From assembly GCA_022844575.1 (NCBI GenBank), contig JALHLL010000001.1, forward strand, positions 5,916-51,325: a DNA stretch of 45,410 bases, read 5' to 3'. The notes beneath the pieces were generated by a model. It did not search any database and was not told the origin of the DNA. It saw only the letters and a program-made list of their open reading frames with translations. Source of the stretch: a bacterium. Lineage in GTDB: Bacteria; Bacteroidota; Ignavibacteria; Kapaibacteriales; UBA961. Shown here one piece after another: positions 10,156-36,104 of the stretch. The first letter of the stretch is position 1; each line of letters begins with the position of its first letter. The position numbers and the translations under genes are program-made.

Positions 10156-10993
10156 TGCGCTTTCCGTTATCCAAATGAAATAAGTCCGTTTTTTTCAGTT
10201 TCTTTCTCACCATTTCATAGTATTCGGGAACAATATCAATCCCTATGGAATTTCTACCCATCCTATCGGCTACTATTAATGTTGTACCGGAGCCCATAAA
10301 CGGATCAAGAACGGTGTCACCTTCTTTTGTAAAAAGCTTTATAAACCATTCGGGCAACTCTTCGGGAAAAGCAGCACTATGGTTTTTATTATTGCACTCG
10401 GTTGCCAAATGCAGTACATTGTTCGGGTATGCCATATCCCTTTTTAACCAATTGGATATATTCTTACCGAAGCCACTACCCACTTTAGAATTGTCTCTTA
10501 TTTTATCCGTTTCCGAAAGATTTTTTAATCGGGATTTCGCCCAATCGCCCATCGGAACCATAACCGCTTCCTGATACATATTAAATTTTTTGCTTTTATT
10601 AAATTGTAATAAACGCTCCCAAGAATCACGGAAACGGTTAGGCCATTTACCCGGGTAACTGTTTTTTTTATGCCATATAAACTCTTCAGTCCATAACCAC
10701 CCTTGCTTTCTCATCTCCATAATAAGTTCCATTACATAGGTACTTCTTTCCCCTTCAACAACTTTTTCCTTGATATTCAGAATAAAAGTGCCCGATGGTT
10801 TCATCACCCTCAATAATTGCTCGGAAATCGGTAAAAACCATTCCACGTACTTATCGGGGTGTATGCCACCATATGTACTTTTCCGTTGGTCGGCATAAGG
10901 GGGCGATGTAACGATTAAATCAATGGAGTTATCACTCAGTAATTGTAATTGTTCTTTACTGTCGCCTAAATATATATCTGTCTGTATTTTCAT
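10115..10993 (-). CDS. site-specific DNA methyltransferase, N4-C/N6-A beta class
   Basis: Motif IV TSPPY (DLIVTSPPYADQ) is near the N-terminus. The AdoMet motif I DPFMGSGTT is near the C-terminus. This order is the beta-class permutation. SPPY is more typical of N4-cytosine enzymes. Confidence 0.85.
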   Translation of the reverse strand: MKIQTDIYLGDSKEQLQLLSDNSIDLIVTSPPYADQRKSTYGGIHPDKYVEWFLPISEQLLRVMKPSGTFILNIKEKVVEGERSTYVMELIMEMRKQGWLWTEEFIWHKKNSYPGKWPNRFRDSWERLLQFNKSKKFNMYQEAVMVPMGDWAKSRLKNLSETDKIRDNSKVGSGFGKNISNWLKRDMAYPNNVLHLATECNNKNHSAAFPEELPEWFIKLFTKEGDTVLDPFMGSGTTLIVADRMGRNSIGIDIVPEYYEMVRKKLKKTDLFHLDNGKRNEKTKSGRRIAIR

Positions 10994-11180: not shown

Positions 11181-11218
11181 ATAAAACAAAAGGGCGCATT
11201 TCCGAAGAAATACGCCCT
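11181..11218 (-). terminator. rho-independent terminator of cassette 1
   Basis: The minus-strand RNA reads AGGGCGUAUUUC-UUCG-GAAAUGCGCCCU, followed by UUUGUUUUAU. It is near-identical to the terminator at 19024-19060. Confidence 0.8.
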
Positions 11219-11221
11219 TCT

Positions 11222-11252: not shown

Positions 11253-14200
11253 TTATTTTTGAACAGTAAGCGGAAGTGTTACCGTTTCATCGCCGGTTTG
11301 TAAACGAACAAAGTAAACACCATTACTCAAATCGCGTGTTGTTATCGCAAATTGATATTGACCTGCCGTCTGTGTTTCCGAGAACAGATTTGAAACAACT
11401 GTTCCGAGTGAATTAACAATACTTACGCTCACATTTTCACTTACAGTAAGCGTATATTGAACTATAGCGCGTTCTTGTGCCGGATTCGGGTATATAGTCG
11501 AAGAAACAACTGTTGTTTGTGACGGTGTTTCTTCATCAACTCCTACTACCGGAATTTGTGCTTTATATTCAGCATTGATAGGGTCATATTCAGTCCATTC
11601 GGCATCCCAACGTTGCAAGCCCATAGCACCGCGGAATGTAACTCTCTCGAAGTGACTGTCATCAATTGCAACCGCTCCGTCTTTCGTAAAGTTTGCACCC
11701 GTTAGCATCGGCGAATTGTCAATTGTCATAGGGTTAAACTCCACAATCTCAAATGGACTTTGGAGCATTGCTTTGCTCGGCGAGCTCTTATCAATAACAT
11801 TATTAAATTTCGCCGTTGTAATCCAGTCCGTATTCATACCGGCAGGAGGCGTTCCGCCCGCAAGGTTTAATATCGTAGAACGAATACCGTATATGGCATT
11901 ATTGCGTATTTGTAATGAATCCGTTAACGCCGCATTCATCGTCGGGACTTGTGCAATTTCAATACCGCGACCCCATCCCATAATCAATGAGTTAAATACC
12001 GATGTACGTGCATTTCTACGTATTTGAAGCCCTGCACCATAACGCGGATTCGGTACTTTCGATGTATCGTTAATAGGACCGATTGCGGTCAAGTTTGAGA
12101 AGATAGGACTTGTTAACGGTTTTCTTGTCGAACCGTTTGCATCATTATCCATTTCCATTACTTGGCTTGTACTTTGGTCGGCACGATTAGGGTGTCTTTG
12201 TGCAATCGCAAATTGAACTCTACCGCTCCAACCATTATCTCCATCAAAGTCATCATCAAGTGCAGCTATCGAGATAAGATGTTTAGCGTTTACAGTACCG
12301 CCAAACCATTCATAAGAATCATCATTGGCATAAGAAACCTGAACATTGTTCATAACCGTTTTACGACCCACTGCGCCCATTGTTAAACCGTTAAGCTCCT
12401 GATTTGGCTGTAATGCCAAACCACCGAATTCAATACGAACATATTCAAGAATACCGCTACTGTCATTATCATCATTACCGCCAAAATACCAGCGTGTTTT
12501 ATTATTCGGGTCGGCAACGCCGCCTTCCATTGCTGCTTCGCCACCCGGATTATTGATTGTAGCCTTTCCGAACATGAGTAAACCGCCCCAGTCACCGGAT
12601 TCGCGTTGACCCGGAGCTGCAAGACTTGAGAATATAATAGGAAGTTTTGCAGTACCTTTGGCAATAATTTTTCCGCCACGATTTACAACCAATGCACAGT
12701 TTTTACCTACAGAATCGCCAAGTATAATCGTTCCCGGAGGTATTACCAATACACCGCCATTATCAACGTGTACATAGCCGCGTAAGCCGTAAATTTTAGT
12801 GTTTGAAAGCTGTACCCGTTTACTTATGCCACCGGTAATAAACGAATCCACTTTACTTGCCGCAGGACGGAAAATTGCAAAAGGATTATCGCTTATATCA
12901 TTCTTCGTTTCATCCGATAAAAGTATCATACGGATATATCCCGTATTCGTTAATTGATCGGGAACGAGGAAGCCGCCAACAATACGACCGCGACGAATAG
13001 TACTGCTTCTATTACTGTCAATGATGTTTTCAAGACCTTTAATAACATTCCATGGGCCACTTGCAGATGCACCATATTCAAAGCGATAATGACGACGATA
13101 GCCGCCTACGGTATCATATGTAATATCAATCGAACGACCGGGACGATAACGCTCGCCTGAACCTGCACCCGGTGTAAGAATACGTACGGTACCATCCACA
13201 GGTTTATCAACGGTAATAGTAAACGGTTTTTCATTCTGCGATGAAATAGCATCAACAGGGTTACCGTTTGCAGCCAAAGCTGTCATACGTACATATCCGC
13301 TTGTAGTTGCTACATTCGGTACAGTAAATCCTGCCATAACTTTACCGCGCATTGCTCCTTCATCCAAAACATTTACTGCACCGGTAACATCATTCCATGG
13401 GTCGGTATCATTCAAACGATATTGGAAACGGAAACGCGAACCTGCTGTAGCTGTTGTATCCCATACCAAATCCACTTTGGAACTACCTTTTAATGTAGTT
13501 TCGCCTGCCGGTTGTAATAATTTGATACCAACTATACGAAAAGCTTGTGGGTTTGTAGAATATACTGTTGTCGGTGACCCGTTTTCATTAAGAATAGTCA
13601 TTCTCACATAAGCAGTTTCCGCAGGTGTATTCGGTAAAATCAAACCGTCAGCAAGAAAATGCTCACCTTTATCGATAACTGTTTCAGCACCCGGAATCGT
13701 CGTCCACGGACCATTTTCCGAAGTGGCAAACTCAAAGCGAAGTTTCACATCAAAAGGATTCTGTCCAGCCGGCTCCTGTCTCCAAACTATGCTTTTACGT
13801 GTTCCTACACGATATACTTCACCGCCTGCAGGAGATGTTAATGTCATTTTCAAAATGGTAATTGGCCCGAGAATACTTGCCGCATCGGGGTTAACAGTGC
13901 CGTCGCGACGTAATGCTACCATTCTGATATACCCGTTATTTGTTGGAACTGAAGGTACGCGAAAACCATTCACTATGCGCCCGCGGGTACTGCCTTCATC
14001 GGTAATATCTTCGGCACCTTGTATATCAGTCCATGGTCCTTCAATCGAAGTGGAAAATTGGAATTTATAACGCAAACCGCGTGAACCGGTCGTATCCCAA
14101 GCTAAATCAGCCGTTGTACCTACAATATATGCCTGCCCCGTTACAGGTGCTGTTAAGCGAAGTGAAGCACCGGAAACAGTCGGAGCACCGGCTATATACG

Positions 14201-15911
14201 GAGCATTAATCGGATCGTAATTTGCCCATTGATAATCCCAACGAAGCCCGTCTCCAAATGCACCGCGATGATTTACTCTTTCAAAAAACGGAGCATCAAT
14301 AGCAGCAAAACCATCACGTGTAAACGAAGCACCGTTTAATACGGGCGAACCCGGATTCGGCACGGCACTAAATGCTATATCGGAAAAAGGGTTCTCTAAT
14401 TGTGCTGCCGAAGGATTATTGGAAGCATCATTGATATTGTTAAATCTCGCGGTACTTATCCATGAAGTCGTCATACCGGCAGGCGGTGTACCACCTGCAA
14501 GATTTAACCATGTTGTTTTAATACCAAACCATGTGTTATTACGAATCTGTAATGTATCATTATATGCAGCGTTCATGGTCGGCACTTGAGCTATTTCAAA
14601 ACCGCGAGGCCAACCGAGAAAAATAGAATTAAAAACAGCAAGTAGTGATGCACGGCGGATTTGCATAGCAGCACCAAAACGCGGATTCGGTGTTTCCGAA
14701 ACATTTTGTAATGGGCCTATAACCGTAACATTCGAGAAGATACCCGATGTACGCGGTACGCGGAATGAACCGCTCGCATCATTATCCGATTCAAATGCTT
14801 GACTTGTTGACTGGTCGGCACGGTTTGCGCTCCGTTGTGAAACCGCAAATTGTACCCTACCACGCCATCCATTATCCGCATCAAAATCATCATCAAGACA
14901 TGAAGTAGAAATAATATGTCTTGCATCAACCGTACCACCGAACCATTCAAAGGCGTCATCATTAGCATAACTCACCTGTACATGATCCATAATCGTACCT
15001 CTACCGACACCGCCCATTGTCAAACCGTTCAATTCTTGATTAGGTTGCAAGGCGATACCACCGAATTCGATACGTACATAACGCAGAATACCGCTATTAT
15101 CATTATCATCAGTTCCGCCAAAATACCAGCGTGCTTTATTATTCGGATCGGCAACGCCGCCTTCCATCGCTGCTTCTCCACCCGGATTATTGATTACCGC
15201 TTTACCCAGAATGATCATTCCTCCCCAATCACCCGGAGCACGTGAACCCGGCGGTGCACTGCTTGTGAATACAATAGGCGCATCGGCACGACCATCGGCA
15301 ATAAGTTTACCGCCACGATTAATAATGAGTGCCGAGTTAACACCTACCTGATCGCCGACAACTATAGTACCCGGTTCAACAACTAAAGTTCCACCGGCAT
15401 CAACATGAAAATACCCTCTTATCCCGTAAATTTTATCACGGGTAAGTGTACGTGTTTCGCCTCCGGCTACAGCGCCCTGCAAGTATTCATCAATTTTTGT
15501 TGTCTGCGGTTGCTCGATTTTAAAAGGAAACTGATTGATACTGGTTTTCGTATTATCGCTCAATAAAACCTGACGTATATAACCGGTGCTTGTAGGTGTT
15601 GCAGGAACGCGAAACGCGCCGATAACACGACCCGCCCGAACGGTACCGCTAGCGTTACTATCTACAATATTGGAAGCACCGCTGATAGTTGTCCACGGTC
15701 CGGATGCCGAAGTTGAAAACTCAAAACGATAACGTGGACGCGGCGTTACACTTGACGGTGAGGTCTCATACACTAAGTCCACGGAGTTACCCGCTCGGTA
15801 GCTCTCATTCGGAGCTGCGCCCGGCGATAGAAATTTTACGGTCTGCGAAAAAGAGACCGAACCCGTCATACACAAAAGTATAAGTACGGAAATTGTAATA
15901 CGTTGATTCAT
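11253..15911 (-). CDS. 1552-aa T9SS-sorted surface protein: two [Ig-like + beta-helix-like] modules bridged by three extra Ig-like domains
   Basis: It has a signal peptide. The modules span aa 23-575 and aa 908-1460 and share long motifs (GDWGG, NNPGGEAAMEGGVADPNNK, WYFGG.DDND.SGIL.YVRIEFGG, NQELNGLTMG, DD..EWFGGTV, ADQSTSQ). The C-terminus (YPNPAQERAIVQYTL...GVYFVRLQ) is a Por_Secre_tail-type CTD. It lies 55 nt downstream of its TBDR. Confidence 0.85.
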   Translation of the reverse strand: MNQRITISVLILLCMTGSVSFSQTVKFLSPGAAPNESYRAGNSVDLVYETSPSSVTPRPRYRFEFSTSASGPWTTISGASNIVDSNASGTVRAGRVIGAFRVPATPTSTGYIRQVLLSDNTKTSINQFPFKIEQPQTTKIDEYLQGAVAGGETRTLTRDKIYGIRGYFHVDAGGTLVVEPGTIVVGDQVGVNSALIINRGGKLIADGRADAPIVFTSSAPPGSRAPGDWGGMIILGKAVINNPGGEAAMEGGVADPNNKARWYFGGTDDNDNSGILRYVRIEFGGIALQPNQELNGLTMGGVGRGTIMDHVQVSYANDDAFEWFGGTVDARHIISTSCLDDDFDADNGWRGRVQFAVSQRSANRADQSTSQAFESDNDASGSFRVPRTSGIFSNVTVIGPLQNVSETPNPRFGAAMQIRRASLLAVFNSIFLGWPRGFEIAQVPTMNAAYNDTLQIRNNTWFGIKTTWLNLAGGTPPAGMTTSWISTARFNNINDASNNPSAAQLENPFSDIAFSAVPNPGSPVLNGASFTRDGFAAIDAPFFERVNHRGAFGDGLRWDYQWANYDPINAPYIAGAPTVSGASLRLTAPVTGQAYIVGTTADLAWDTTGSRGLRYKFQFSTSIEGPWTDIQGAEDITDEGSTRGRIVNGFRVPSVPTNNGYIRMVALRRDGTVNPDAASILGPITILKMTLTSPAGGEVYRVGTRKSIVWRQEPAGQNPFDVKLRFEFATSENGPWTTIPGAETVIDKGEHFLADGLILPNTPAETAYVRMTILNENGSPTTVYSTNPQAFRIVGIKLLQPAGETTLKGSSKVDLVWDTTATAGSRFRFQYRLNDTDPWNDVTGAVNVLDEGAMRGKVMAGFTVPNVATTSGYVRMTALAANGNPVDAISSQNEKPFTITVDKPVDGTVRILTPGAGSGERYRPGRSIDITYDTVGGYRRHYRFEYGASASGPWNVIKGLENIIDSNRSSTIRRGRIVGGFLVPDQLTNTGYIRMILLSDETKNDISDNPFAIFRPAASKVDSFITGGISKRVQLSNTKIYGLRGYVHVDNGGVLVIPPGTIILGDSVGKNCALVVNRGGKIIAKGTAKLPIIFSSLAAPGQRESGDWGGLLMFGKATINNPGGEAAMEGGVADPNNKTRWYFGGNDDNDSSGILEYVRIEFGGLALQPNQELNGLTMGAVGRKTVMNNVQVSYANDDSYEWFGGTVNAKHLISIAALDDDFDGDNGWSGRVQFAIAQRHPNRADQSTSQVMEMDNDANGSTRKPLTSPIFSNLTAIGPINDTSKVPNPRYGAGLQIRRNARTSVFNSLIMGWGRGIEIAQVPTMNAALTDSLQIRNNAIYGIRSTILNLAGGTPPAGMNTDWITTAKFNNVIDKSSPSKAMLQSPFEIVEFNPMTIDNSPMLTGANFTKDGAVAIDDSHFERVTFRGAMGLQRWDAEWTEYDPINAEYKAQIPVVGVDEETPSQTTVVSSTIYPNPAQERAIVQYTLTVSENVSVSIVNSLGTVVSNLFSETQTAGQYQFAITTRDLSNGVYFVRLQTGDETVTLPLTVQK
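11532..13190 (-). repeat. intragenic duplication, module 2 (Ig-like + beta-helix-like, aa 908-1460)
   Basis: See module 1. For example, 12478-12558 and 15115-15195 are 81 nt long with only 4 differences. Confidence 0.8.
13212..14168 (-). repeat. three tandem Ig-like domains of about 105 aa (aa 582-900)
   Basis: Each unit has the pattern L..P..G......G...D..WDT.......R..F.......GPW..I.GA....D.G...G.....F.VP.......GY(I/V)RM, which recurs at about aa 582, 688 and 795. The same domain heads both beta-helix-like modules. Confidence 0.7.
14187..15845 (-). repeat. intragenic duplication, module 1 (Ig-like + beta-helix-like, aa 23-575)
   Basis: It aligns along its whole length with aa 908-1460 of the same protein and with aa 24-600 of the 695-aa protein at 19097-21184. 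Confidence 0.8.
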
Positions 15912-15966
15912 AAAAATACCTTAAAGGTTATTTAATAAATACTGTTTCTGAAATATGAATTTATAA

Positions 15967-18837
15967 TTATCGTAATCGGTAGCTTATGCCAAGACTATAT
16001 GTAGTGCCTCTTAAATTGGAAGCAATTGTTTTTCCCCCTTGTAGCCATACCAATTCCTGATTCAGAATATCTCTTGCAACAAGTTTTACTTCCATCGAAT
16101 TATCCAAAAAGGGTTGGATAATAGTAAAATCAATAACATCTCGCGGCTGCTCATATACATGGGGATCATCGAAGGAAAATGCACCGCGCAGTCCGACCTG
16201 AACTATTCTTCGACCATATTTATTATAGCCGATATTAACGGATGTACCGAATGTAGGGTTTGTATAAAACAGTCCTATATTAAGCGAATAGGGTGACTGC
16301 CCCCAAATAGTTCTTTTATCTTCCGAGCGACCCTGTAGTACCGTAATTTCGGAGTTAATAAGAGAAAGATTAAAATTCACACCGAAATCAGATAAAAAAT
16401 CGGTAATAAAACTTAATGATTTGCGTGCCTCGAATTCGACACCATAATTATTTGCTTTACCATCGGCGGTTTTTTTGCCGGTGGAATCAACACTTTGTCC
16501 ATTGGAGAATGTTCTGATATACTCGCTTGAAACTTGGTCAATAGTTTCTTCGATAGGATTGGTAAGGTTTTTATAGAATAAACTGATAGAAAATACTTCA
16601 CCCGGATTTGAGAAGTATTCCCAACGTATATCGTAATTGGAAATTAATGTACGTTCCAAATTCGGATTTCCGCGCACTACGAATAATGATTGGAAGTCAT
16701 AAAATGCAAAGGGCGCAAATTCGCGTAAGTTAGGGCGTGTTAATGTTCTTGTGGCAGAAAAACGGAAATTTGTTTTTTCATTCATTTTATATACGACATT
16801 GAATGAAGGCAACCAATCTGTTGTTTTATAATTTAAATTAATCGGATTACCTTCCGTATCAGAGCTCTGAAGCGATTGAACGGCATCTTCAACTCTTGCA
16901 CCTCCGATAAATCTGAATTGTTCATCAAACAGAGTAAAAGGTGCGTCAATCATTAAGAATGCCGCATTTAAGTCTTCACCTGCCGTATATGAATCGCTTC
17001 TTTTAGAATCTTCCGACATTCCAAGACCACCCGGACGAAAATTTTCCGCACGGAAAAGACTGTCCGGTGTATCGGAAAAGTCAATATCGAAATCCGCTCC
17101 GCTTGTCGGCTGATTGATAGTAAAAGAACGTACTCCGAAATTCCTGCTTTTTCTTTCTATTAAAAATCCTGTTTTTAATTTAATATCATTACTTATCGGT
17201 AGGGCAAAATTTAATGCTGCATTTCTTCCTATATCACTTAGGTTGGAAAAAAAGCGGCCTGCTAAAGTACCGTCTCCCTGTGGGGTGGGTTGTATATCAG
17301 CTGTAAAAGGAAGTGTTGAATCAACCGATTGACGAGAGTAGCGTAAACGTCTAAAATCAGGTTCATCACGCATGGATTCCGAATATCCGAGTCTCCAATC
17401 GAAAAACAGATTATTTACGATTGCATTACTATCGAAAGAAATGCTATGCTCACCATTCAGTTGGGTTGATAATAATTGTTTTTGAACAAATTGCCAACTT
17501 GAAGGACGTATATCAATACCCTGCGGAATATCGCTACCATTAAGTAATGTTGTTTCATCATCACTTGAACGATTAAATACATTTTTAAAGCTTACGGAAC
17601 TATGCGCACCTATTTTGTAGGCAAAATTCGCCATACCCCCATAGTTTACGGAATATGTGGAAACGACACCTACATTTTCCTGACGATATTCCTTATCGGC
17701 AAGAATAGGACTTCTCGTAATGGAGTTTATCGCATACGCATTGCCATAATTAACGGAAGCAATTACCCCTAAATCATTATCGGCAATATTATATAAATTA
17801 GTAAACGATAGCGCAAAAGAAGTATTCGGATTAGCTGTAAAAGATTCTTTATTCCAAACATTCTGATTAAAACCACGTGCAAAATTCTGCAAAGTACTTT
17901 TAGCCGAGTCACCCGATGCATCATTTCTTCTTGCAGCTAGAATCAAACGATTTATTTCATCACGACTGCTCGGCGCACTTGCCGGCATTGCCCTTGTACC
18001 GTCATCCTGTGCAAGCCAGTCATCAGCACCGCCCGGATATGAATTAAATTGATTATCGCTTATTTGTACATTATTATTTGCCGATGTGGAAATACTTGCT
18101 TTTACCGAAAATCCATCGGGGAAATCAATCGTATTTAATTGAACCAATCCGCCTGCAAAATTACCCGGCAAATCGGGTGTAAAGGATTTGGCAATATTAG
18201 CACTTTGTAGAAATTCGGATGGAAACATACCGAAGTCGAATGAACGTTTGTCGGGTTCCGTTGATGTTAGTGTCGAGCCGTTTAATGTAGTATTACTATA
18301 TCTATCGCTTGACCCACGAACATAAATAAACTTATCGCCGACCAATGTTACACCCGAAACCCTTTTTAATGCCTGCCCGGCATCGGCATCCGGTAAACGG
18401 GAAATTTCCTCTTTACTCACACCATCACTTACCTGCGCCGAATTTTTTCGATTAGCAAGAATTGCCTCTTTTGATTCTTTATTGGCGCGAGCGGTAACAA
18501 TTACTTCTTTTTCATCTTTTTTGGGAAATAACACAACATTAACCGTTACGGATTTCTCGGGCGTAACCTCAACATTTTCTATTGTTTTTGTCTGTAATCC
18601 TACATAAGAAAATTTAAGAGAATATTTTCCTACCGACACCGACTTGATTGTGTATTTACCTTTTACATCCGTATATGCACCTTTTTTTGTACCTATTATT
18701 TGTACGGTTGCACTACGTAAGGGCTCACCCGATTCACCATCCGTTACAACTCCTGTAATTGTGCTGTTATTTTGTGCGGATGAATAACTTATGACAGTGA
18801 AAATAAACACTAAAAAAGTACCAAAGCGTTTGCCCAT
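15967..18837 (-). CDS. TonB-dependent receptor with CarboxypepD_reg-like N-terminal domain (cassette 1)
   Basis: It has a signal peptide after MGKRFGTFLVF and a carboxypeptidase-regulatory-like domain (GVVTDGESGEPL...GKYSLKFSYVGL). The plug region is VSDGVSKEEISRLPDADAGQALKRVSGVT, followed by a long beta-barrel. I place the start at 18837: GGAGGT lies 10 nt upstream, and the ORF-track extension is the conserved leader read through. Confidence 0.9.
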   Translation of the reverse strand: MGKRFGTFLVFIFTVISYSSAQNNSTITGVVTDGESGEPLRSATVQIIGTKKGAYTDVKGKYTIKSVSVGKYSLKFSYVGLQTKTIENVEVTPEKSVTVNVVLFPKKDEKEVIVTARANKESKEAILANRKNSAQVSDGVSKEEISRLPDADAGQALKRVSGVTLVGDKFIYVRGSSDRYSNTTLNGSTLTSTEPDKRSFDFGMFPSEFLQSANIAKSFTPDLPGNFAGGLVQLNTIDFPDGFSVKASISTSANNNVQISDNQFNSYPGGADDWLAQDDGTRAMPASAPSSRDEINRLILAARRNDASGDSAKSTLQNFARGFNQNVWNKESFTANPNTSFALSFTNLYNIADNDLGVIASVNYGNAYAINSITRSPILADKEYRQENVGVVSTYSVNYGGMANFAYKIGAHSSVSFKNVFNRSSDDETTLLNGSDIPQGIDIRPSSWQFVQKQLLSTQLNGEHSISFDSNAIVNNLFFDWRLGYSESMRDEPDFRRLRYSRQSVDSTLPFTADIQPTPQGDGTLAGRFFSNLSDIGRNAALNFALPISNDIKLKTGFLIERKSRNFGVRSFTINQPTSGADFDIDFSDTPDSLFRAENFRPGGLGMSEDSKRSDSYTAGEDLNAAFLMIDAPFTLFDEQFRFIGGARVEDAVQSLQSSDTEGNPINLNYKTTDWLPSFNVVYKMNEKTNFRFSATRTLTRPNLREFAPFAFYDFQSLFVVRGNPNLERTLISNYDIRWEYFSNPGEVFSISLFYKNLTNPIEETIDQVSSEYIRTFSNGQSVDSTGKKTADGKANNYGVEFEARKSLSFITDFLSDFGVNFNLSLINSEITVLQGRSEDKRTIWGQSPYSLNIGLFYTNPTFGTSVNIGYNKYGRRIVQVGLRGAFSFDDPHVYEQPRDVIDFTIIQPFLDNSMEVKLVARDILNQELVWLQGGKTIASNLRGTTYSLGISYRLR

Positions 18838-18922
18838 AGCGTACGCGACCTCCATAATATTGATAATACGTCCCCGTTCACGCTTATCCCCCACGTTAAC
18901 GATAACTTTTTTTAATCGAACG

Positions 18923-18930
18923 CAAAATTA
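18923..18930 (-). promoter_or_regulatory. candidate -7 box TAATTTTG, cassette 1
   Basis: It is a TAnnTTTG match 86 nt upstream of the ATG. The same octamer lies at nearly the same distance (87 nt) upstream of the cassette 2 ATG (24141-24148). Confidence 0.45.
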
Positions 18931-18948
18931 TAGAGGCAGTATTTTAAC

Positions 18949-18981
18949 AATGTTACGCCAATACTAACAACACGTAACATT
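18949..18981. promoter_or_regulatory. operator-like inverted repeat AATGTTACG-N15-CGTAACATT
   Basis: The arms are perfect 9-bp repeats at 18949-18957 and 18973-18981, starting 19 bp upstream of the -7 box. A counterpart lies at the same offset in cassette 2. Confidence 0.45.
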
Positions 18982-19023
18982 AACAACATGTAATATTGGA
19001 ATTATTTTCTCGATCGAAAATTG

Positions 19024-19060
19024 AATAAAAAAAGGCGTATTTCTTAAAGAAATACGCCCT
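19024..19060 (-). terminator. rho-independent terminator of cassette 2
   Basis: The minus-strand RNA reads GGCGUAUUUC-UUUAA-GAAAUACGCC, followed by UUUUUUUAUUC. Confidence 0.8.
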
Positions 19061-19061
19061 G

Positions 19062-19081
19062 TTTCCGTGTGGGGTATGGAG
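19062..19081 (-). promoter_or_regulatory. conserved 3'-UTR box, copy 2
   Basis: It is identical to 11222-11241 (plus-strand tttccgtgtggggtatggag). Confidence 0.6.
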
Positions 19082-19096
19082 TACGGAAGATTTCTA

Positions 19097-21184
19097 CTAT
19101 CGTACTATCGTTAACGGATAGGAAATTGCTCCGGCATTGCTCTCAATTTGAACATAATAAGTACCAACCGATAAAGTTGATGTATTAAGTTGAACATCAA
19201 AAATACCATTACCACTTGTTTCATAATTTTCCAAAGCAACCATTATTTTATTGCCGATTACATCATATACATTTACCGAAACCGTTGCACGTGAGGGGGT
19301 CGAAAAACGTATCAATGTCATTTCATTTGCCGGATTGGGTAATAAACGCATATCAACACGACTGAGAGAAGGAATTTCTTCATTTTCTACACTTGTAAAT
19401 ACTTGCGGATAGGCTGTATTTACCGGATTATAATTTGCCCATGGCAAATCCCAACGTTCTTGAACATTTACACCGAAAGCACCGCGATAGTTTACTTTCT
19501 CAAAAAAGTTATTATCGAGATTCACCGTACCGATAGTAGCAAACGAAGGGTCACCTATTGTTGCGTTCGGAATAAAATTCGGTGTTTCCGGATTGCGTGT
19601 ATATATTCCTGTAAATGGTGCATATGAGCTGATAGCGCCGGAACCGTTTGTTATATTGTTTGCATTTTTCGATTCCAATAACCATGCTGCATTCATACCC
19701 TCAACAGCACTTTCACCCGATTCCAAAGGAACTCTTAAACCACCACCTTTAATACCATACCATGAATTGTTACGTACCAATAAAGAATCTTTTGAAGCTG
19801 CCGTTAAAGTTCTTGCACCTCTTAATTCATACCCAGCTCGTGGGAAGCCGTAAAAAACGGAATTTATTAATGACATATGCGAATTTCTGCGTACTTGACC
19901 AGCTGAACCGTATAATGTATTCCATTGTTCATTTCCGGAACCTAAGGTACGCGACGTATCATCAATGGGCCCTACTAATGTCATATTACTGAAAATAGGG
20001 CTCGTACGCGGCTTATTGTACGTACCCGTACCATCATTATCAGATTCAAAACATTGGCTTGTGCTTTGGTCGGCAAATTCGCGATAACGTTGTGCCACAC
20101 CAAATTGAATGCGACCGCTAAAACCAAAATCGGTATCAAAGTCATCATCTACCGTACCATTGGCAACAAGGTGTTTTGCATCAACAGTACCGCCAAACCA
20201 TTCAAAAGCATCGTCGCCATTGTGTGTGCATTGAACATTATTGATAGTTGTTCCGCGACCGACTGCTCCTAATGTCAGAGAGTTCAGTTCCTCATTCGGA
20301 AATGCGGCAATACCTGCAAACTCAATACGAACATATTCCAGCGTACCGCTATTGTCATTATCATCAGTACCACCATACCAACCTTTGCCTGATGTAGCCG
20401 CAGCTATACCGCCTTCAAGAGCTGCTTCTCCGGCTTTAACGTTAACTCTGGCTTTGCCGCATATCAAGATACCACCCCAATCGCCTGTGCGTCTTTGTCC
20501 TGCAGGTGCTGAACTTGTGAAAACGATAGGACGTTCTTTAGTACCGCGTGCTTCAATTTTACCACCGCGATTTACGCATAATGCAGAGTTTGTACGAGGT
20601 GTATCACTTACAATAACAACACCGGGCTCTATCGTAAGAGTAGCGCCTGCTTCAACATATGTATAACCGCGTAAACCATATATTTTATTCGGCACATAAG
20701 CAATATTGACAGTACCGGTAATGCTTTGTGGTAAATATTCATCAATTTTAATCGGAGTAGGCGGCGGAGTGATCGAAAATTTATCGCTCAAACCGATAAT
20801 TGTCGGATCATCTCTTTTCACCATTCTCAAATAGCTGCTTTCACCGGCTAATGTAGGTCGGAAAGCAAAACGTGCTTCACCACGACCACGAGTTGAACCC
20901 GCAGAAGCTGCTCCTGAATCATTGTGTACCCAATCAACAGGTAATTGCGTAACCGGATCACGACGTTTAATACGACTCCATGGACCCGATTCGCCTGTTA
21001 CCGAAAATTCCAAATAATATCGTGTACCTCTTGGCGAATTTGTCGTATCCCAGCGAATTGTATAAGATTGCCCAACACTTAATACTGCATTGGCTGCCGG
21101 TGTAGTGATTTTAGGTCCGTTTTGCGCTGAAGTAATAGCTACGCTCAATACTATCATGCAAAAAAGAAGAAACATTTTTTTCAT
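19097..21184 (-). CDS. 695-aa T9SS-sorted surface protein: Ig-like domain + beta-helix-like module + CTD (cassette 2)
   Basis: It has a signal peptide and the same motif set as the 1552-aa protein (GDWGGILICGKA, KAGEAALEGG, WYGGTDDNDNSGTLEYVRIEFAG, NEELNSLTLGAVGRGT, DDAFEWFGGTV, ADQSTSQCFESDNDG). The C-terminal LLPNPANEMTLIRF...GTYYVQIE is a Por_Secre_tail CTD. It lies 32 nt downstream of its TBDR. Confidence 0.85.
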   Translation of the reverse strand: MKKMFLLFCMIVLSVAITSAQNGPKITTPAANAVLSVGQSYTIRWDTTNSPRGTRYYLEFSVTGESGPWSRIKRRDPVTQLPVDWVHNDSGAASAGSTRGRGEARFAFRPTLAGESSYLRMVKRDDPTIIGLSDKFSITPPPTPIKIDEYLPQSITGTVNIAYVPNKIYGLRGYTYVEAGATLTIEPGVVIVSDTPRTNSALCVNRGGKIEARGTKERPIVFTSSAPAGQRRTGDWGGILICGKARVNVKAGEAALEGGIAAATSGKGWYGGTDDNDNSGTLEYVRIEFAGIAAFPNEELNSLTLGAVGRGTTINNVQCTHNGDDAFEWFGGTVDAKHLVANGTVDDDFDTDFGFSGRIQFGVAQRYREFADQSTSQCFESDNDGTGTYNKPRTSPIFSNMTLVGPIDDTSRTLGSGNEQWNTLYGSAGQVRRNSHMSLINSVFYGFPRAGYELRGARTLTAASKDSLLVRNNSWYGIKGGGLRVPLESGESAVEGMNAAWLLESKNANNITNGSGAISSYAPFTGIYTRNPETPNFIPNATIGDPSFATIGTVNLDNNFFEKVNYRGAFGVNVQERWDLPWANYNPVNTAYPQVFTSVENEEIPSLSRVDMRLLPNPANEMTLIRFSTPSRATVSVNVYDVIGNKIMVALENYETSGNGIFDVQLNTSTLSVGTYYVQIESNAGAISYPLTIVR

Positions 21185-21216
21185 AAATTTAACTCTATTA
21201 TTAAAGAAATAAAATA

Positions 21217-24054
21217 CTAGAATTTTAGTCCGAGACTGAAATTGACTGTACGACCTCTTAAATTAGAAGCGATATTATTACCGCCTTGCAACCATATTAA
21301 TTGCTGATTTAATACATCGCGAACAACCAAACGTACCTCAAGAAGTTCTAAAAACGGTTGCGATACGGATATATCAACAACATCACGAGGTTGCTCATAT
21401 ACATGCGGATTTGCAAAATCATAACTGCCTAATAAACCAACTTGAATTATGCGTTCTCCCGCACGATTATAACCGAGATTAAATTGAGTACCCCAAGAAG
21501 GGTGCTGATAGAATAATCCGAGATTTACGGAATATGGTGATTGCCCCCACATACGACGCGTATCGTTAATATTGCCTTGGCGAACATTGACGCTGGAATT
21601 AATAAGCGATACATTAAGCGAAGCACCTAAGTTTTCAAATCCTTCACCAATAAATCCTAATTGTTTACGTAATTCAAATTCGATACCGTAATTTGTCGCC
21701 AAACCCGCAGCATTTTGAAATGAAAAAACAGGATTTCCGCTTGAAGGTAAAATTGTTTCTTCTATTGCGTTTTCAAAACTTTTGTAAAAAGCACTTACGG
21801 AAATTACTTCGCCCGGATTAGGGAAATATTCATATCGTGCATCTACATTCCAGATAAGTGCGCGTACCAAATCGGTATTACCTTGCACACGTGCCTGGCG
21901 TTGAAAATCAAAAAAGGCAAAAGGTGCAAATTCACGTAAATTGGGTCTTGTTAAAGTTTGCGAACCGGAAACACGAACATTTGAATTTTCAGATGATTTC
22001 CATATTAAATTCAAAGCAGGAAGAATATCCGTATTTTTTCTTTCAACGGAAATCAGTTGATTATCGCCCGTATATACCGAAGGCAAACGTTGAATATTAT
22101 CTTCAATACGCACACCGGTAATAATTCTGAATTGTTCATCGCCAAAACTAAACGGGACATCAAACATTACATAGCCGGCATTTAATTGCTCCTCAGCCAT
22201 ATACTGATCTGATTTTTTAGAATCTTCCGCAATGCCTAATCCGTTTGCACGGAAATTTGTGGAATCAAATAATTTTTCCGGTGAGTCGGTTAGGTTTATT
22301 CCTTCGGGATCAACGTCAGGAAAGACCGTTTTACTTTGAATAATAGTAAATGATCGTGCTCCGAAATCACGGTCGCGACGTTCAAGTAATCCGCCTACTT
22401 TTATTTTAGTTGTTTCTATGGGAATGGTAATATTTAATGCACCTGTATAAGCATTATCCGTCAAATCGGAAAAAAATCTGCCCGCTACCGTACCATCGCC
22501 TTTTGAAGTACTCGGAACATCAGCGGAAAATAATTCCGTAGTGCTGCCAAGTTGGCGCGAGTAACGTAAACGGCGTAAATCGGGTTCATTACGGGTACTT
22601 TGTGAATAACCGCCATTCCATTCTGCAAGAATATCTCCGGGTAAATTATGCTGCCCTGCAATTTGACCGGAATACAATGATTTTTCTATAAATTGAGCAC
22701 TATAATATCGGCGTTCTCTATCTTGATTAAAATCTTCACCTTGTAATAATACAACCTCATCGTCAATGGATTGATTGTAAATATTTTTAAAAGCAAGGGT
22801 GGAATGCCCACCTAATTTATAAGCAATATTAAAAAGACCACCCCATCCGGCACTACGCGTGGAAACCGAACCGCCATAATTATATTGTTTATTACCCGCA
22901 CCTGATAATCCGGCACGTGTAATTTGATTAATCGAATAACCGTTAGAATAATTTGCGGAAGCAATGATACCTAAATCATTATCGGCAACATCCAATAAAT
23001 TACTATAAGAAAGACTCATACCCATATTAACAGGTGCAGCCGTATTTTCCTGTTTCCAAACAGATGAGTTAAATGCCCTACCCAACCCTATCCATTCTCT
23101 TGCTGCTACACCATTATCCGCTTCGGGATTACCTGCATGGCGAATTAAATTGTCCATTTCTGTCGAAGTAGTAGGCACTCCGGAAACCATGCTACGCGTA
23201 CCATCATCAAAAGCAAGCCAATCGCTATCGCCGCCGGAATATGTTTGAAAAGCACCGTCGCGTAATGTTACATTATTATTGTATGCCGATGAAATACCGA
23301 ATTTAAAAGCATTACCTTGTGGAAAATCAACCGTATTTAATTGTACCAATCCACCGGCAAAGTTTCCGGGCATATCGGGGGTAAATGATTTTAATACATT
23401 CGCACTTTGCAAAAATTCCGAAGGGAACATATCGAAAGCAAATGCTTTTTTATCGGGTTCGGTAGATGTAAGTGCGGCTCCGTTTAATGTCGTATTATTA
23501 TAGCGTTCGCTTACGCCACGTACATATACGAATTTATCGCCAACAACGGTAACACCCGTAATACGTTTTAGTGCCTGTCCGGCATCACCATCGGGTAATT
23601 TGGCAATCTCTTCTTGCCCTACTCCATCGCTTACTTGTGCGGCATTTTTTCTTTGAGCAAGTATCGCTTCTTTCGACTCCCTATTGGCACGTGCGGTAAC
23701 AACCACTTCGTCCGCTTTTTTATTTTCCAATTTCAAAACCACATTTACCGATACGGTTTTGCCCGCAGCTACCTCTACCTTTTCAATCAATTTGGTTTCA
23801 AAACCAACATATCGGAAACGTAATGAATAAGTACCCGTAGCAACCTTCTTTATGGTGTATTTGCCCGTTACATCGGAATAAGCACCTTTTTTTGTGGGCT
23901 GTTTTTCCGGTGTTAGTAACTCTACGGTAACACTGCGCATAATATCGCCCGTTTCCCCGTCAGTTATTTTGCCGGTTATAATTCCATCTTGTGCTTTCGT
24001 GGCAAATAAAGAAGTGAGTGTAAGAACAAGAATTGTAATAATGCGTTTGCTCAT
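21217..24054 (-). CDS. TonB-dependent receptor with CarboxypepD_reg-like N-terminal domain (cassette 2)
   Basis: It is collinear with the 15967-18837 receptor throughout and ends in the typical terminal Phe (LGLKF). The start is placed at MSKRIITILVL (24054), 10 nt after GGAGGT. Confidence 0.9.
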   Translation of the reverse strand: MSKRIITILVLTLTSLFATKAQDGIITGKITDGETGDIMRSVTVELLTPEKQPTKKGAYSDVTGKYTIKKVATGTYSLRFRYVGFETKLIEKVEVAAGKTVSVNVVLKLENKKADEVVVTARANRESKEAILAQRKNAAQVSDGVGQEEIAKLPDGDAGQALKRITGVTVVGDKFVYVRGVSERYNNTTLNGAALTSTEPDKKAFAFDMFPSEFLQSANVLKSFTPDMPGNFAGGLVQLNTVDFPQGNAFKFGISSAYNNNVTLRDGAFQTYSGGDSDWLAFDDGTRSMVSGVPTTSTEMDNLIRHAGNPEADNGVAAREWIGLGRAFNSSVWKQENTAAPVNMGMSLSYSNLLDVADNDLGIIASANYSNGYSINQITRAGLSGAGNKQYNYGGSVSTRSAGWGGLFNIAYKLGGHSTLAFKNIYNQSIDDEVVLLQGEDFNQDRERRYYSAQFIEKSLYSGQIAGQHNLPGDILAEWNGGYSQSTRNEPDLRRLRYSRQLGSTTELFSADVPSTSKGDGTVAGRFFSDLTDNAYTGALNITIPIETTKIKVGGLLERRDRDFGARSFTIIQSKTVFPDVDPEGINLTDSPEKLFDSTNFRANGLGIAEDSKKSDQYMAEEQLNAGYVMFDVPFSFGDEQFRIITGVRIEDNIQRLPSVYTGDNQLISVERKNTDILPALNLIWKSSENSNVRVSGSQTLTRPNLREFAPFAFFDFQRQARVQGNTDLVRALIWNVDARYEYFPNPGEVISVSAFYKSFENAIEETILPSSGNPVFSFQNAAGLATNYGIEFELRKQLGFIGEGFENLGASLNVSLINSSVNVRQGNINDTRRMWGQSPYSVNLGLFYQHPSWGTQFNLGYNRAGERIIQVGLLGSYDFANPHVYEQPRDVVDISVSQPFLELLEVRLVVRDVLNQQLIWLQGGNNIASNLRGRTVNFSLGLKF

Positions 24055-24140
24055 GGCGTACGCAACCTCCATAATGTTTGTGATGTGTGCCGACCACGCT
24101 TTTTCCCCACACGGTTTCGGCATTATTTACTCTACAGTCA

Positions 24141-24148
24141 CAAAATTA
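24141..24148 (-). promoter_or_regulatory. candidate -7 box TAATTTTG, cassette 2
   Basis: It is a TAnnTTTG match 87 nt upstream of the ATG at 24054. It is positionally equivalent to 18923-18930. Confidence 0.45.
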
Positions 24149-24166
24149 TCTTTACAGTGTATCCGG

Positions 24167-24199
24167 AATGTTATCGTAGTGTTATCAATACATAACATG
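24167..24199. promoter_or_regulatory. operator-like inverted repeat AATGTTATCG ... CATAACATG
   Basis: The arms are ATGTTAT / ATAACAT. The total span (33 bp) and the offset from the -7 box are the same as for the cassette 1 repeat. Confidence 0.4.
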
Positions 24200-26246: not shown

Positions 26247-26271
26247 GGATACTGAATATATATTGCGATGA

Positions 26272-27213: not shown

Positions 27214-27243
27214 AATACACAATGATTGGAGTGATAAAATTCT

Positions 27244-27251
27244 CAAAACTA
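27244..27251 (-). promoter_or_regulatory. candidate -7 box TAGTTTTG
   Basis: It is a TAnnTTTG match 31 nt upstream of the ATG at 27213. Confidence 0.35.
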
Positions 27252-27751
27252 CAGAAAAAAGCAGCACATTTATTTTACTTTGTAAAGTACGAGGTATGTT
27301 CATTTTATGGTTCGGAAGATTCTGCCATCTGTTTTCATCTATTAAAATCATCACTTTTTGAGTATTGAGTACAATTTGTTTAATACGTTCTCGTCGGACT
27401 CTTGCGTTTCTTTATTACAATAAAGGTTTACACCGGATATGTCCAAACATTCTTTGATACAAAATATGTGCTATGGGTTAACAACCTTAGCCCATGTTTC
27501 AAGGAATCGGTTCAACAGGGGCCTCACTCATTTCATTTATCACGCTTTTACATTCGGAATTCGCTTCGGCAGAGCAAACCCATCAAGCAAAGTCAACTGC
27601 ATTTATCTGATAGGCGGTCGCCGTATCAAGATTACTCTCAATTATCAGAACAGACCTGTTTTCGACACGAACACTAATTCAGTACAAGAACGTAAAAACG
27701 CTTTAATAATGCAGTTTCAGGCGGCAATACTATAAAAGAACACTAAACCTC

Positions 27752-27780
27752 AATAAAAAAGCCATGAATTTCATGGCTTT
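27752..27780 (-). terminator. rho-independent terminator of the two-component operon
   Basis: The hairpin is agccatgaa-ttt-catggct (27760-27779), with a U-run on the minus-strand RNA. The response-regulator stop codon lies inside the stem. Confidence 0.75.
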
Positions 27781-35367: not shown

Positions 35368-35400
35368 AAAAACCTTTTAAAAAACAATAAAACTTCAATA

Positions 35401-36087: not shown

Positions 36088-36104
36088 ACAATTCATTAAT
36101 AATT

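Follow-up and report, generated by a model that had tools for sequence, protein, structure and literature searches.

What does a TonB-dependent receptor gain from a neighbour that carries a sorting signal of the type IX secretion system (T9SS)? The question is raised by two similar gene cassettes in the window, that is, in the whole stretch of 45,410 nucleotides that we analysed from a bacterium of the class Ignavibacteria. Judged by the best matches of its proteins, the organism resembles Ignavibacteriota/Kapabacteria. The original prediction saw in them an undescribed outer-membrane uptake system, possibly for glycans, with a partner module that could not be placed in any family.

Organization of the two cassettes

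The cassettes are two consecutive minus-strand operons, each of which consists of a promoter with an operator, a TonB-dependent receptor, a short gap, a T9SS partner and an intrinsic terminator. In the first, receptor 1 (21217-24123, minus strand; an ORF of 968 aa) is followed by partner 1, a protein of 695 aa referred to below as p695 (19097-21184, minus strand). In the second, receptor 2 (15967-18894, minus strand; an ORF of 975 aa) is followed by partner 2, a protein of 1552 aa (11253-15911, minus strand). The gaps between receptor and partner measure 32 and 55 nt, exactly as foreseen. Both receptors have the same three domains (CarboxypepD_reg, Plug and TonB_dep_Rec_b-barrel) and are 54% identical, while p695 aligns twice with the 1552-aa protein, at aa 9-572 (44% identity) and at aa 910-1552 (41%). 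The ORFs, the domains and this similarity bear out the predicted twin architecture.

The true start of receptor 1 is likely M24 at 24054, ahead of a signal peptide ending in KAQ, and that of receptor 2 is likely M20 at 18837, also ahead of a signal peptide. Counted from these positions the receptors are approximately 945-956 aa long, in agreement with the predicted size of about 950 aa.

There are just two copies of the inverted repeat ATGTTA-N19-TAACAT in the 45 kb window, against 0.10 expected by chance, and both sit upstream of a receptor. The operator-like repeat of cassette 1 (24168-24198, minus strand) reads ATGTTAT-N17-ATAACAT and that of cassette 2 (18950-18980, minus strand) reads AATGTTACG-N15-CGTAACATT. 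About 20 nt past each repeat lies the sequence TAATTTTG (24141-24148 in promoter 1 and 18923-18930 in promoter 2, minus strand), which we take to be a -7 box of the Bacteroidota type, TAnnTTTG. A scan with the sigma-70 consensus did no better than on shuffled sequence. The -7 box, the operator-like repeat and the leader described earlier are thus present in both operons, with leaders of approximately 85-86 nt (originally 86-87 nt) when counted to M24 and M20. The leaders gave no Rfam match, no RNA structure and no excess folding energy, and a riboswitch or other leader RNA was rejected on these grounds.

Intrinsic terminators follow partner 1 (19032-19060, minus strand; a 13-bp stem and a T run) and partner 2 (11188-11221, minus strand; a 15-bp stem). 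None was found between receptor and partner in either cassette.

Domains of the partner proteins

In p695, a signal peptide is followed by an Ig-like domain (aa 23-135), a Beta_helix_4 module (19385-20767, minus strand, aa ~140-600) and a T9SS type A C-terminal domain (CTD; 19127-19339, minus strand, aa 616-686), recognized by Por_Secre_tail (39.2 bits) and TIGR04183. The larger partner begins with a signal peptide and a first Ig-like domain, continues with module A (14187-15509, minus strand, aa 135-575), four Ig-like spacer domains, Ig2-Ig5 (12864-14159, minus strand, aa ~585-1016), and module B (11547-12866, minus strand, aa 1016-1455), and ends in a T9SS CTD (11277-11495, minus strand, aa 1473-1545; Por_Secre_tail 47.6 bits). 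Its two units of Ig-like domain and helix are 61.5% identical to each other. The layout originally proposed for both partners, one Ig-like domain, one module and a CTD, therefore describes p695 but not the 1552-aa protein, which has two module copies and five Ig-like domains.

Both Por_Secre_tail scores exceed the Pfam cut-off of 27 bits. Together with the N-terminal Sec signals, which are SPI-type signal peptides (..SAQ, ..SFSQ), the Por_Secre_tail/TIGR04183 matches mark both partners as T9SS type A cargo. The window encodes four more CTD proteins, two of them just below the Pfam cut-off. A lipoprotein signal (a lipobox Cys plus an export signal) is absent from the window partners, which have Por_Secre_tail in its place.

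Fold and family of the module

The module of p695, modelled alone, reached an AF2 pLDDT of 92.7 and a pTM of 0.93. Foldseek searches with this model returned right-handed beta-helix proteins only, namely enzymes and tailspikes, including pectate lyase Pel9A, PL6, GH28 and GH87, as well as the adhesin PfbA. These matches are weak (E >= 2e-3, TM 0.15-0.34). With the full-length p695 model, nearly all matches were to Ig domains. The model and the Foldseek results together support the parallel beta-helix that had been put forward as a guess.

The family can be named too. A protein 100% identical to p695 (P0001) carries precomputed PF18962 and PF28492 (Beta_helix_4) annotations, and the three window modules score 653-671 bits against a family HMM. 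The module gave no match in a Pfam release older than PF28492, in NCBIfam or in PDB sequence and profile searches. The claim that it could not be placed is overturned by the Pfam assignment, and that of an undescribed system is not supported, the pair being assigned to the family of ElpS/CC0171, Fjoh_0546/0545 and BT4056/BT4055. A phmmer search recovered 6,253 cluster representatives (clusters at 50% identity) at E <= 1e-3. Literature searches for PF28492, or for TonB-dependent uptake, T9SS and Ignavibacteria combined, returned nothing useful.

The motifs listed in the original prediction are real: in a set of 100 module instances that covers three phyla, conservation reaches 90% or more at most of their polar positions. 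About 18 polar residues of the module are invariant across phyla, and invariant acidic and polar residues extend over at least five consecutive rungs of the helix. This ladder comprises D277, E299/N301, D324-D325-E328, D346-D347-D350, E380-D382-N383 and N400.

A conserved pair with alternative anchors

It is worth stressing that membership of the window pair in this family rests on the shared Pfam domain and on positional orthologues of ElpS and BT4056. With a Bacteroides lipoprotein, p695 shares 36% identity (E 8e-32), and the locus of that lipoprotein has the order TBDT-lipoprotein-HK-nuoN/M. As the nuo genes are BT4058-4067 in B. thetaiotaomicron (PMC11351048), this is the position of BT4055-56-57. 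A Sphingomonas lipoprotein matches p695 with 36% identity across 277 aa (E 3e-37), has all core motifs in common with it and lies in the order lipoprotein-TBDR-gspN-gspD-gspE; the lipoprotein-TBDR-gsp arrangement is that published for elpS (PMC2996285). The receptors are homologous as well, with 25-27% identity from end to end. Judged by sequence, the window partners belong to Beta_helix_4, and the pair very probably to the ElpS/BT4056/FI-FII family.

The association of module and receptor, whose absence from other genomes would have told against the original prediction, does recur: in 60 of 63 related loci the module gene has a homologous receptor next to it in the same orientation. These loci span at least four phyla, and the median gap is 77 nt. 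The arrangement is also seen in Proteobacteria, and the two proteins of a pair vary in concert.

What varies is the anchor. A T9SS CTD was found in 27 homologues and a lipoprotein signal in about 46, the latter with a D/E/K-rich stretch after the Cys; none had both. From these sequence features, the predicted T9SS display here, as against the lipoprotein anchor of most Bacteroidota, is an anchoring variant of a known family. Since either anchor is used, never both, and the same transporter is kept, surface exposure next to the transporter appears to matter, which we count as independent evidence.

Genomic linkage to phosphate genes

Genes of the pst/phoU/phoBR group were found in 14 of 80 related loci. 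In three of them (L006, L043 and L066) the operon reads TBDR-helix-x-pstSCAB-phoU, an Alteromonas locus has the order phoR-pstS-...-helix-TBDR, and PhoB/PhoR equivalogs scoring above cut-off adjoin the pair in related loci. In two model bacteria, the expression of family members points the same way: ElpS is induced by phosphate starvation (PMC2996285), and Fjoh_0545/0546 of F. johnsoniae are induced by Pi starvation, with no induction under Fe limitation (PMC8115612).

Against a phosphorus role in this genome, the 45-kb window has no pst or phoBR genes, the regulator adjoining the cassettes is a LytTR system, and their common operator is palindromic, unlike a Pho box. In favour of such a role, a metallophosphoesterase and two T9SS proteins, one of the Exo_endo_phos type and one phytase-like, are encoded in the window.

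These results lead us to consider it probable that each cassette is an uptake pair of the ElpS/BT4056 family, which serves a phosphorus-linked ligand by means of a surface beta-helix partner and TonB-driven import. A transporter outside the SusC group would be co-transcribed with its right-handed beta-helix (Beta_helix_4) partner. The latter would be exported by Sec and handed on to the type IX secretion system; the example of other type A CTD cargo suggests that it would end up either attached to the cell surface or set free. Docked to the transporter, its acidic and polar ladder may form a ligand or metal site for a phosphorus-linked ligand of invariant chemistry, which it would capture, possibly via divalent cations, or process. 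Import by the neighbouring transporter would draw on TonB energy. Several points count against this reading: an acidic groove does not bind phosphate directly, ElpS had no phosphatase activity and could be deleted without a phenotype in the assay concerned (PMC2996285), and BT4055/56 mutants and complex predictions, described below, gave little in its favour.

A broader idea is possible, although we hold it only tentatively: Beta_helix_4 and its transporter might constitute an energy-dependent outer-membrane phosphorus route upstream of PstS in thousands of Bacteroidota, Ignavibacteriota and Proteobacteria, with the T9SS multi-module forms as long-reach "fishing-line" scavengers. Its cargo might be, for example, orthophosphate, pyrophosphate, polyphosphate or metal-phosphate complexes on a cation-loaded acidic ladder.

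Alternative functions

The beta-helix might instead be a surface enzyme, such as a Ca2+-dependent lyase, a hydrolase or a phosphoesterase, that cuts an anionic polymer or complex (polyphosphate, metal-phytate, teichoic-acid-like polymers, uronic glycans), leaving the receptor to import the product. We regard this as unlikely, yet it deserves the most attention among the alternatives. The Foldseek matches are beta-helix enzymes or tailspikes, and invariance of some 18 polar residues across phyla is a pattern seen more often at catalytic or metal centres than at SusD-like binding sites. In addition, the DD..D cluster may resemble the Ca2+ site of PL9 lyases. However, those structural matches are weak, and the module matches no lyase or hydrolase family in Pfam or NCBIfam and nothing in PDB by sequence or profile. 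Experiments on ElpS point in both directions: its overexpression raised extracellular phosphatase activity, but the purified or immunoprecipitated protein had no such activity (PMC2996285).

Capture of a phosphorus-linked ligand also has to be weighed against metal acquisition, in which the receptor would import Ca2+, Mg2+, Fe3+ or rare-earth ions that the ladder binds, perhaps by stripping them from insoluble phosphates. The wealth of invariant Asp, Glu and Asn on one rung after another agrees with such a role, TonB transporters classically import metal chelates, and T9SS has been tied to Ca2+/Mg2+ assimilation in Cytophaga. What makes the idea improbable is that the pair is linked to pst/phoBR rather than to metal regulators or metal ABC systems, and that induction in F. 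johnsoniae is specific to Pi depletion and absent under Fe limitation (PMC8115612).

The glycan locus of the original prediction, of a type other than SusCD, had a T9SS protein and a "GH9-like" protein feeding oligosaccharides to the receptor. The beta-helix fold is indeed common to many polysaccharide-active enzymes. Additionally, the NCBIfam model that scores best for both receptors is the TonB-Xanth-Caul subfamily, whose members are often tied to carbohydrate uptake; receptor 1 reaches 247 bits, which is under the cut-off of 310.

The genes upstream (24306-29521, minus strand) encode a 646-aa protein, a binding lipoprotein of the SsuA/NMT1 type, a LytTR response regulator and a His_kinase. 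For the 646-aa protein, which has a weak CTD-like tail, searches of Pfam and NCBIfam (E <= 0.01) and of PDB sequences (E <= 1) returned no match. The GH9 identity was therefore dropped, there being no match of any kind to GH9 in Pfam, NCBIfam or PDB sequences. Neither this protein nor the binding lipoprotein or the LytTR two-component system, all proposed as components of the system, has a homologue in any of the 80 related loci, which rules them out as conserved parts. No CAZyme is a conserved neighbour either; the recurrent neighbours are pstSCAB, phoU and phoBR. Furthermore, a site that is near-invariant from Proteobacteria to Ignavibacteriota is hard to square with variable glycans. Glycan capture is thus highly improbable.

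Finally, we give almost no credence to an adhesin or S-layer-like protein that has no transport role and adjoins the receptor through co-regulation only: PfbA, an adhesin, ranks high among the structural matches and Ig-like spacers are typical of adhesins, but the co-varying pair stays adjacent and co-oriented in nearly all loci and in at least four phyla.

Significance

TonB transporters with surface partners other than SusD are only now being catalogued, and few of them are as widespread as the Beta_helix_4 family. In Flavobacterium and Caulobacter, moreover, its members rank with the proteins that phosphate starvation induces most strongly. If the suggested phosphorus route is real, T9SS would be a general alternative to lipoprotein export for the complexes of TonB transporters and their partners. 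The cassettes indicate that T9SS can supply transporter partners, and the invariant acidic ladder offers a site to mutate. Practical value may lie in phosphorus cycling in soil, rhizosphere, ocean and gut. Annotation would gain as well, as current labels read only "T9SS type A sorting domain-containing protein", "Ig-like domain-containing protein" or "hypothetical".

Comparison with known systems

Like SusC/SusD systems (PusCD, RagAB), the window cassettes pair a TonB transporter with a co-encoded, presumably surface-exposed partner. The window receptors, however, fail the SusC/RagA model TIGR04056: against a cut-off of 368 they score 51.3 and 37.7 bits (38 bits for receptor 1), with matches confined to their N-terminal region. 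SusD is helical and TPR-like, whereas the window partner is modelled as an all-beta helix, has no SusD-like (RagB) Pfam match and is not a lipoprotein. The assertion that it is neither SusD-like nor a lipoprotein holds in this genome.

In ElpS (CC0170) and the TonB receptor CC0171 of Caulobacter crescentus (Le Blastier et al. 2010, PMC2996285), a partner of the Beta_helix_4 type is again encoded beside its cognate receptor, is surface-exposed and then released, and is induced by Pi starvation. ElpS differs in being an N-terminally lipidated lipoprotein freed by T2SS-dependent proteolysis, in its order of partner, then receptor, and in having one module and neither an Ig-like nor a T9SS domain.

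BT4055 (a TBDT) and BT4056 (a lipoprotein) of Bacteroides thetaiotaomicron, judged by the positional orthologue, share with the window pair the Pfam domain, a receptor built of CarboxypepD_reg, Plug and barrel, and the order of receptor, then partner. In BT4056, Price, Deutschbauer and Arkin (2023, bioRxiv 10.1101/2023.03.17.533168) proposed a non-SusD "lid". They reported proximity of this type as conserved in 621 genera, no mutant phenotype in 519 fitness experiments and few confident contacts in AlphaFold-Multimer. Unlike the window partners, BT4056 is a lipoprotein of about 400 aa with an export signal and without a C-terminal extension, Ig domain or CTD. A T9SS tether at the C-terminus and a lipid tether at the N-terminus would each bring a different end of the helix close to the membrane, which argues against a rigid lid.

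In F. johnsoniae, the lipoproteins FI, FII and FIII (Fjoh_3856, Fjoh_0546 and Fjoh_4889) are likewise pectin-lyase-fold partners downstream of TBDTs (Fjoh_3857, Fjoh_0545). As members of the Pho regulon, they rank with the most abundant exoproteins when Pi is depleted (Lidbury et al. 2020, PMC8115612). They differ in being lipoproteins within a phoBR operon, and their relation to the window proteins is transitive, with Fjoh_0546 40% identical to BT4056 (Price et al., bioRxiv 10.1101/2023.03.17.533168). A September 2026 preprint called the function of the Pus3/Pus4 loci that hold them difficult to predict (10.64898/2026.09.03.749221).

More distant parallels are HasA/HasR and BtuG/BtuB, whose folds and ligands are unrelated to those of the window pair. 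In both, a dedicated TonB transporter receives its scarce nutrient from a binder that is exposed at the surface or released, and this shuttle idea fits the observation that ElpS and FI/FII are released into the medium.

Two tandem receptor–partner operons

Gene calls and domain searches confirmed the presence of two tandem cassettes, each composed of a TonB-dependent receptor and a secreted T9SS partner. Receptor 1 (21217-24123, minus strand) and receptor 2 (15967-18894, minus strand) both consist of CarboxypepD_reg, Plug and TonB barrel domains and share 54% identity. The partners, p695 of 695 aa in cassette 1 (19097-21184, minus strand) and a 1552-aa protein in cassette 2 (11253-15911, minus strand), end with a Por_Secre_tail domain (CTD) whose scores exceed both the Pfam and the TIGRFAM cut-offs. 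As predicted, the gaps between receptor and partner are 32 nt and 55 nt long. Neither gap contains a terminator and a strong intrinsic one follows each partner (19060-19032 and 11221-11188), which allows us to treat the cassettes as two separate two-gene operons.

Upstream of each receptor lies the palindrome ATGTTA-N19-TAACAT, found only at these two sites in the 45 kb window, with 0.10 expected by chance. About 20 nt downstream of each copy there is TAATTTTG, which we take to be a Bacteroidota-type -7 element. The receptor signal peptides start at M24 (receptor 1) and M20 (receptor 2), while the ORF-finder starts lie too far upstream; the leaders are thus about 85-86 nt and the receptors about 950 aa long, in line with the original prediction. 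No RNA element was seen in the leaders of the two operons, which gave no Rfam match and folded no better than shuffled sequence.

Partner architecture and fold of the module

The p695 sequence aligns twice to the 1552-aa partner. Domain-level analysis of the latter revealed, in order, a signal peptide, a first Ig-like domain, beta-helix A (aa 135-575), four more Ig-like domains (aa 585-1016), beta-helix B (aa 1016-1455) and the CTD, the two Ig+helix units being 61.5% identical. The expected plan of Ig, module and CTD therefore does not describe this protein, which has two helices and five Ig-like domains.

Searches of the window proteins against local sets of Pfam, NCBIfam and PDB sequences gave no match for the module. 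In a large protein collection, PF28492 (named Beta_helix_4 in the database) is precomputed on every module homologue, including P0001, a protein identical to p695. The guess of a beta-helix-like fold proved right: AlphaFold2 was confident for the whole of p695 (pLDDT 88) and for the module alone (pLDDT 92.7, pTM 0.93), and for the model of the module Foldseek returned only right-handed parallel beta-helix proteins, among them tailspikes, pectate lyase Pel9A, adhesin PfbA, PL6, GH28 and GH87. All these matches were weak (E >= 2e-3, TM 0.15-0.34), and the module has no close solved relative. The family is large: in a full phmmer pass, 6,253 cluster representatives (50% identity) scored E <= 1e-3 and 4,848 scored E <= 1e-10, many carrying 2-5 modules.

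Conservation was studied on 100 module instances aligned to a family HMM, from Bacteroidota, Ignavibacteriota and relatives as well as nine proteobacterial modules. Each of W236, D277, E299, N301, D324, D325, E328, D346, D347, D350, D352, Q360, D372, E380, D382, N383, N400, R432 and N441 is conserved in 94 or more of the 100, and nine of these 19 residues are invariant or nearly so (99-100 modules). They recur about every 22-25 residues, the length of one beta-helix rung, and this periodicity would place them in a row on one side of the helix, spanning five or more rungs. Invariance of this kind across phyla suggests a catalytic centre, a metal site or a ligand of constant chemistry rather than variable glycans. 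As a ladder of acidic residues cannot itself bind phosphate, divalent cations may act as bridges, the ligand may be cationic or the site may be catalytic; the module may be either a binder or an enzyme.

A conserved receptor neighbourhood and two surface anchors

A scan of one genome per species yielded 595 confirmed relatives, from which 80 loci were kept; genes were called and labelled by BLAST against the window proteins. These loci come from Bacteroidia, Sphingobacteriia, Chitinophagia, Flavobacteriia, Cytophagia (Hymenobacter), Ignavibacteria, Kapabacteria/Chlorobiota, Krumholzibacteriia and Eisenbacteria. In 63 of them the sequence extends 3 kb or more upstream. The next gene upstream, on the same strand, is a homologous receptor in 59 of these, and in one the receptor comes directly downstream; the median receptor-partner gap is 77 nt. 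In two more, only small ORFs separate the genes. Adjacency in 60 of 63 loci bears out the prediction of a partner dedicated to a TonB receptor.

Searching plasmids and chromids with tblastn added Pseudoalteromonas, Alteromonas, Marinobacter, Sphingomonas and Indioceanicola. The order is partner, then TonB receptor, in four out of five proteobacterial records examined, the exception being a Marinobacter locus near an IS element. Some proteobacterial partners carry two or three modules (L088 3477-7547 from Alteromonas macleodii, L082 6740-9535 and L086 3276-6146).

Surface anchors were surveyed in 74 full-length module homologues from the related loci, with the lipobox sought by regular expression. 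A T9SS CTD without a lipobox was present in 27 and a lipobox without a CTD in 41; five evident lipoproteins were missed by the expression and one start was truncated. No homologue combined both anchors. The lipoproteins are K/D/E-rich after the cysteine (e.g., SCSKDDN, ACGDDDD, SCSDDDDD), matching the pattern of the signal for export to the Bacteroidota surface that Price et al. discuss (bioRxiv 10.1101/2023.03.17.533168).

One module beside one type of transporter thus appears, from its sequence signals, to reach the surface by two unrelated routes. The use of both favours the view that what is selected is exposure at the surface close to the transporter. The tethers would sit at opposite helix ends, an N-terminal lipid in one form and, by analogy with type A CTD cargo, the C-terminus left after CTD cleavage in the other, a layout that speaks against a lid on a rigid hinge and in favour of a binder that is loosely tethered or released. 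Our literature searches found no paper on the T9SS form of the module-receptor pair.

Phosphorus genes around the related loci

Clustering of the genes flanking the 80 loci revealed recurrent response regulators, histidine kinases, OlsF-like acyltransferases, PstS-type binding proteins and M28 peptidases. In Bacteroidales, two-component systems adjoining the pair pass the NCBIfam equivalog cut-offs (Bacteroidota) for both PhoB and PhoR in L059 and L037 and for PhoB only in L064; the L043 binding protein passes that for PstS. In L043, L066 and L006 (Melioribacter roseus, a T9SS-type carrier), the receptor, the beta-helix gene, one further gene and then pst genes follow on a single strand, and in L043 the run was confirmed through pstSCAB, phoU and a response regulator. 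Under strict thresholds, pst, phoU or phoBR genes occur within 7 kb in 14 of the 80 loci, and in 12 of the 53 of at least 12 kb. Alteromonas macleodii has, in succession, phoR, a phosphate-binding protein, a 2OG oxygenase, a three-module beta-helix protein and the TonB receptor. Glycan capture, as originally suggested, finds no support among neighbours that include PhoB/PhoR and PstS types, and a phosphorus role for the ElpS/BT4056 family (see below) is reasonably probable.

Several further neighbours were recorded. The Alteromonas oxygenase, of the 2OG-Fe(II) type, stands between the phosphate-binding protein and beta-helix genes. The gene that separates the beta-helix gene from pstS in three distant genomes (L006 9117-10091, L043 8434-9429, L066 8484-9473) encodes about 325-330 aa and has no Pfam or NCBIfam match; the C-terminus of its L006 product, ...FYWKF, resembles that of an outer-membrane beta-barrel, and the protein could be an analogue of phosphate porins. 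Eight loci of Sphingobacteriia, Melioribacter and Chlorobiota (L004, L011, L012, L041, L047, L055, L073, L079) have, only a few genes away from the pair, a bifunctional acyltransferase of OlsF-like type (Acyltransf_2 + Acetyltransf_5) that is possibly connected to phosphorus-free lipid synthesis. In L018, L036, L041 and L061, from Ignavibacteria, Melioribacter and Chitinophagaceae, the T9SS-type beta-helix gene adjoins genes for an M28 peptidase and for a short binding protein of the PstS family (about 277-295 aa).

Other genes in the window

The 45 kb window has no pst gene and no pho regulator. Judging by domain content, it does hold further exoproteins of phosphorus-scavenging type. They are a metallophosphoesterase (5849-6793), a T9SS protein of 1488 aa whose domains are Phytase-like (PF13449) and choice-of-anchor-I (39642-44108, plus strand) and the Exo_endo_phos protein described next. 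An Oar-like receptor (OMP_b-brl_4, CarboxypepD_reg and Plug; 36105-39467, minus strand) is followed by a DUF4397 protein (35401-36141, minus strand) and a T9SS protein with DUF5689, Exo_endo_phos and Por_Secre_tail domains (33580-35367, minus strand), probably a secreted nuclease or phosphatase. In this stretch (33580-39467, minus strand), T9SS cargo again follows a TonB receptor, in a third arrangement.

Cassette 2 is followed directly downstream by a type II restriction-modification pair (9424-10993, minus strand), in which an endonuclease of the EcoO109I family (E 1.7e-92) accompanies an N6/N4 DNA methylase. The 646-aa protein at 24306-26246 (minus strand) had been called GH9-like, which is unsupported: it matched nothing in Pfam, NCBIfam or PDB sequences. 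Its C-terminus scored weakly against a locally built T9SS CTD model (E 2.5e-5) and the 80 related loci contain no homologue; it is an orphan. An SsuA/NMT1-type solute-binding protein (26272-27354, minus strand) gave weak phosphonate-binding-family matches; its real start is probably MRIFIGIIFCISVLFSSC, with a lipobox, and no ABC permease or ATPase gene lies nearby. Two adjacent T9SS proteins (29821-33507, plus strand) carry BNR/Sortilin-type beta-propeller domains, the second also having ASH/HYDIN-type Ig domains.

Comparison with published receptor–partner pairs

The pair had been predicted to be undescribed, and three papers already describe it. In Caulobacter, ElpS (CC0170) is made on phosphate starvation as an outer-membrane surface lipoprotein later released in a T2SS-dependent manner; its gene adjoins the receptor gene CC0171 just upstream of gsp genes, an arrangement noted also in Sphingomonas, Xanthomonas and Hyphomonas (Le Blastier et al. 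2010, PMC2996285). Flavobacterium johnsoniae has three related lipoproteins (FI, FII, FIII), described as weakly homologous to pectate lyases and polygalacturonases; when Pi is depleted, they rank with the most abundant exoproteins. [quoted passage not shown] 2020, PMC8115612). BT4056, 40% identical to Fjoh_0546 and distantly related to ElpS, was proposed as a non-SusD 'lid' for the TBDT BT4055, and such pairs occur in proximity in 621 genera, 394 of Bacteroidota and 171 of Proteobacteria (Price, Deutschbauer and Arkin 2023, bioRxiv 10.1101/2023.03.17.533168). For the F. johnsoniae loci with these lipoproteins, function was still described as difficult to predict in a preprint of September 2026 (10.64898/2026.09.03.749221).

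Membership in this family was tested through positional orthologues of the published proteins. A Sphingomonas record has the order lipoprotein-TBDR-gspN-gspD-gspE, which is the published elpS synteny; its lipoprotein has an LSAC lipobox and aligns with p695 over 277 aa at 36% identity (E 3e-37), the alignment taking in every core motif. A Bacteroides contig carries a 904-aa TBDT, a 402-aa Beta_helix_4 lipoprotein and a PAS/GAF histidine kinase, then nuoN and nuoM on the opposite strand. Since nuo of B. thetaiotaomicron is BT4058-4067 (PMC11351048), this is the BT4055-BT4056-BT4057 position. The lipoprotein is 36% identical to p695 (E 8e-32) and the receptor aligns over its full length with the window receptor at 25-27% identity.

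In Bacteroides finegoldii NZ_OY725943.1 (L083 5821-7074), the BT4056-type gene is frameshifted into two ORFs and absent from the distributed gene table; other assemblies of the species have it intact (417 aa).

These alignments make it very likely that the window partners belong to the ElpS/BT4056 family. From the original interpretation we retain the idea that the partner is a surface protein dedicated to a TonB receptor and folded as a beta-helix, and give up its undescribed, glycan and GH9 parts. Taken as a whole, the proposal we lean towards, with some reserve, is that the cassettes would be phosphorus-linked capture-and-import pairs of that family, T9SS-anchored and partly double-module. 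The module-receptor pair itself is already published; what is new here is its T9SS-anchored form.
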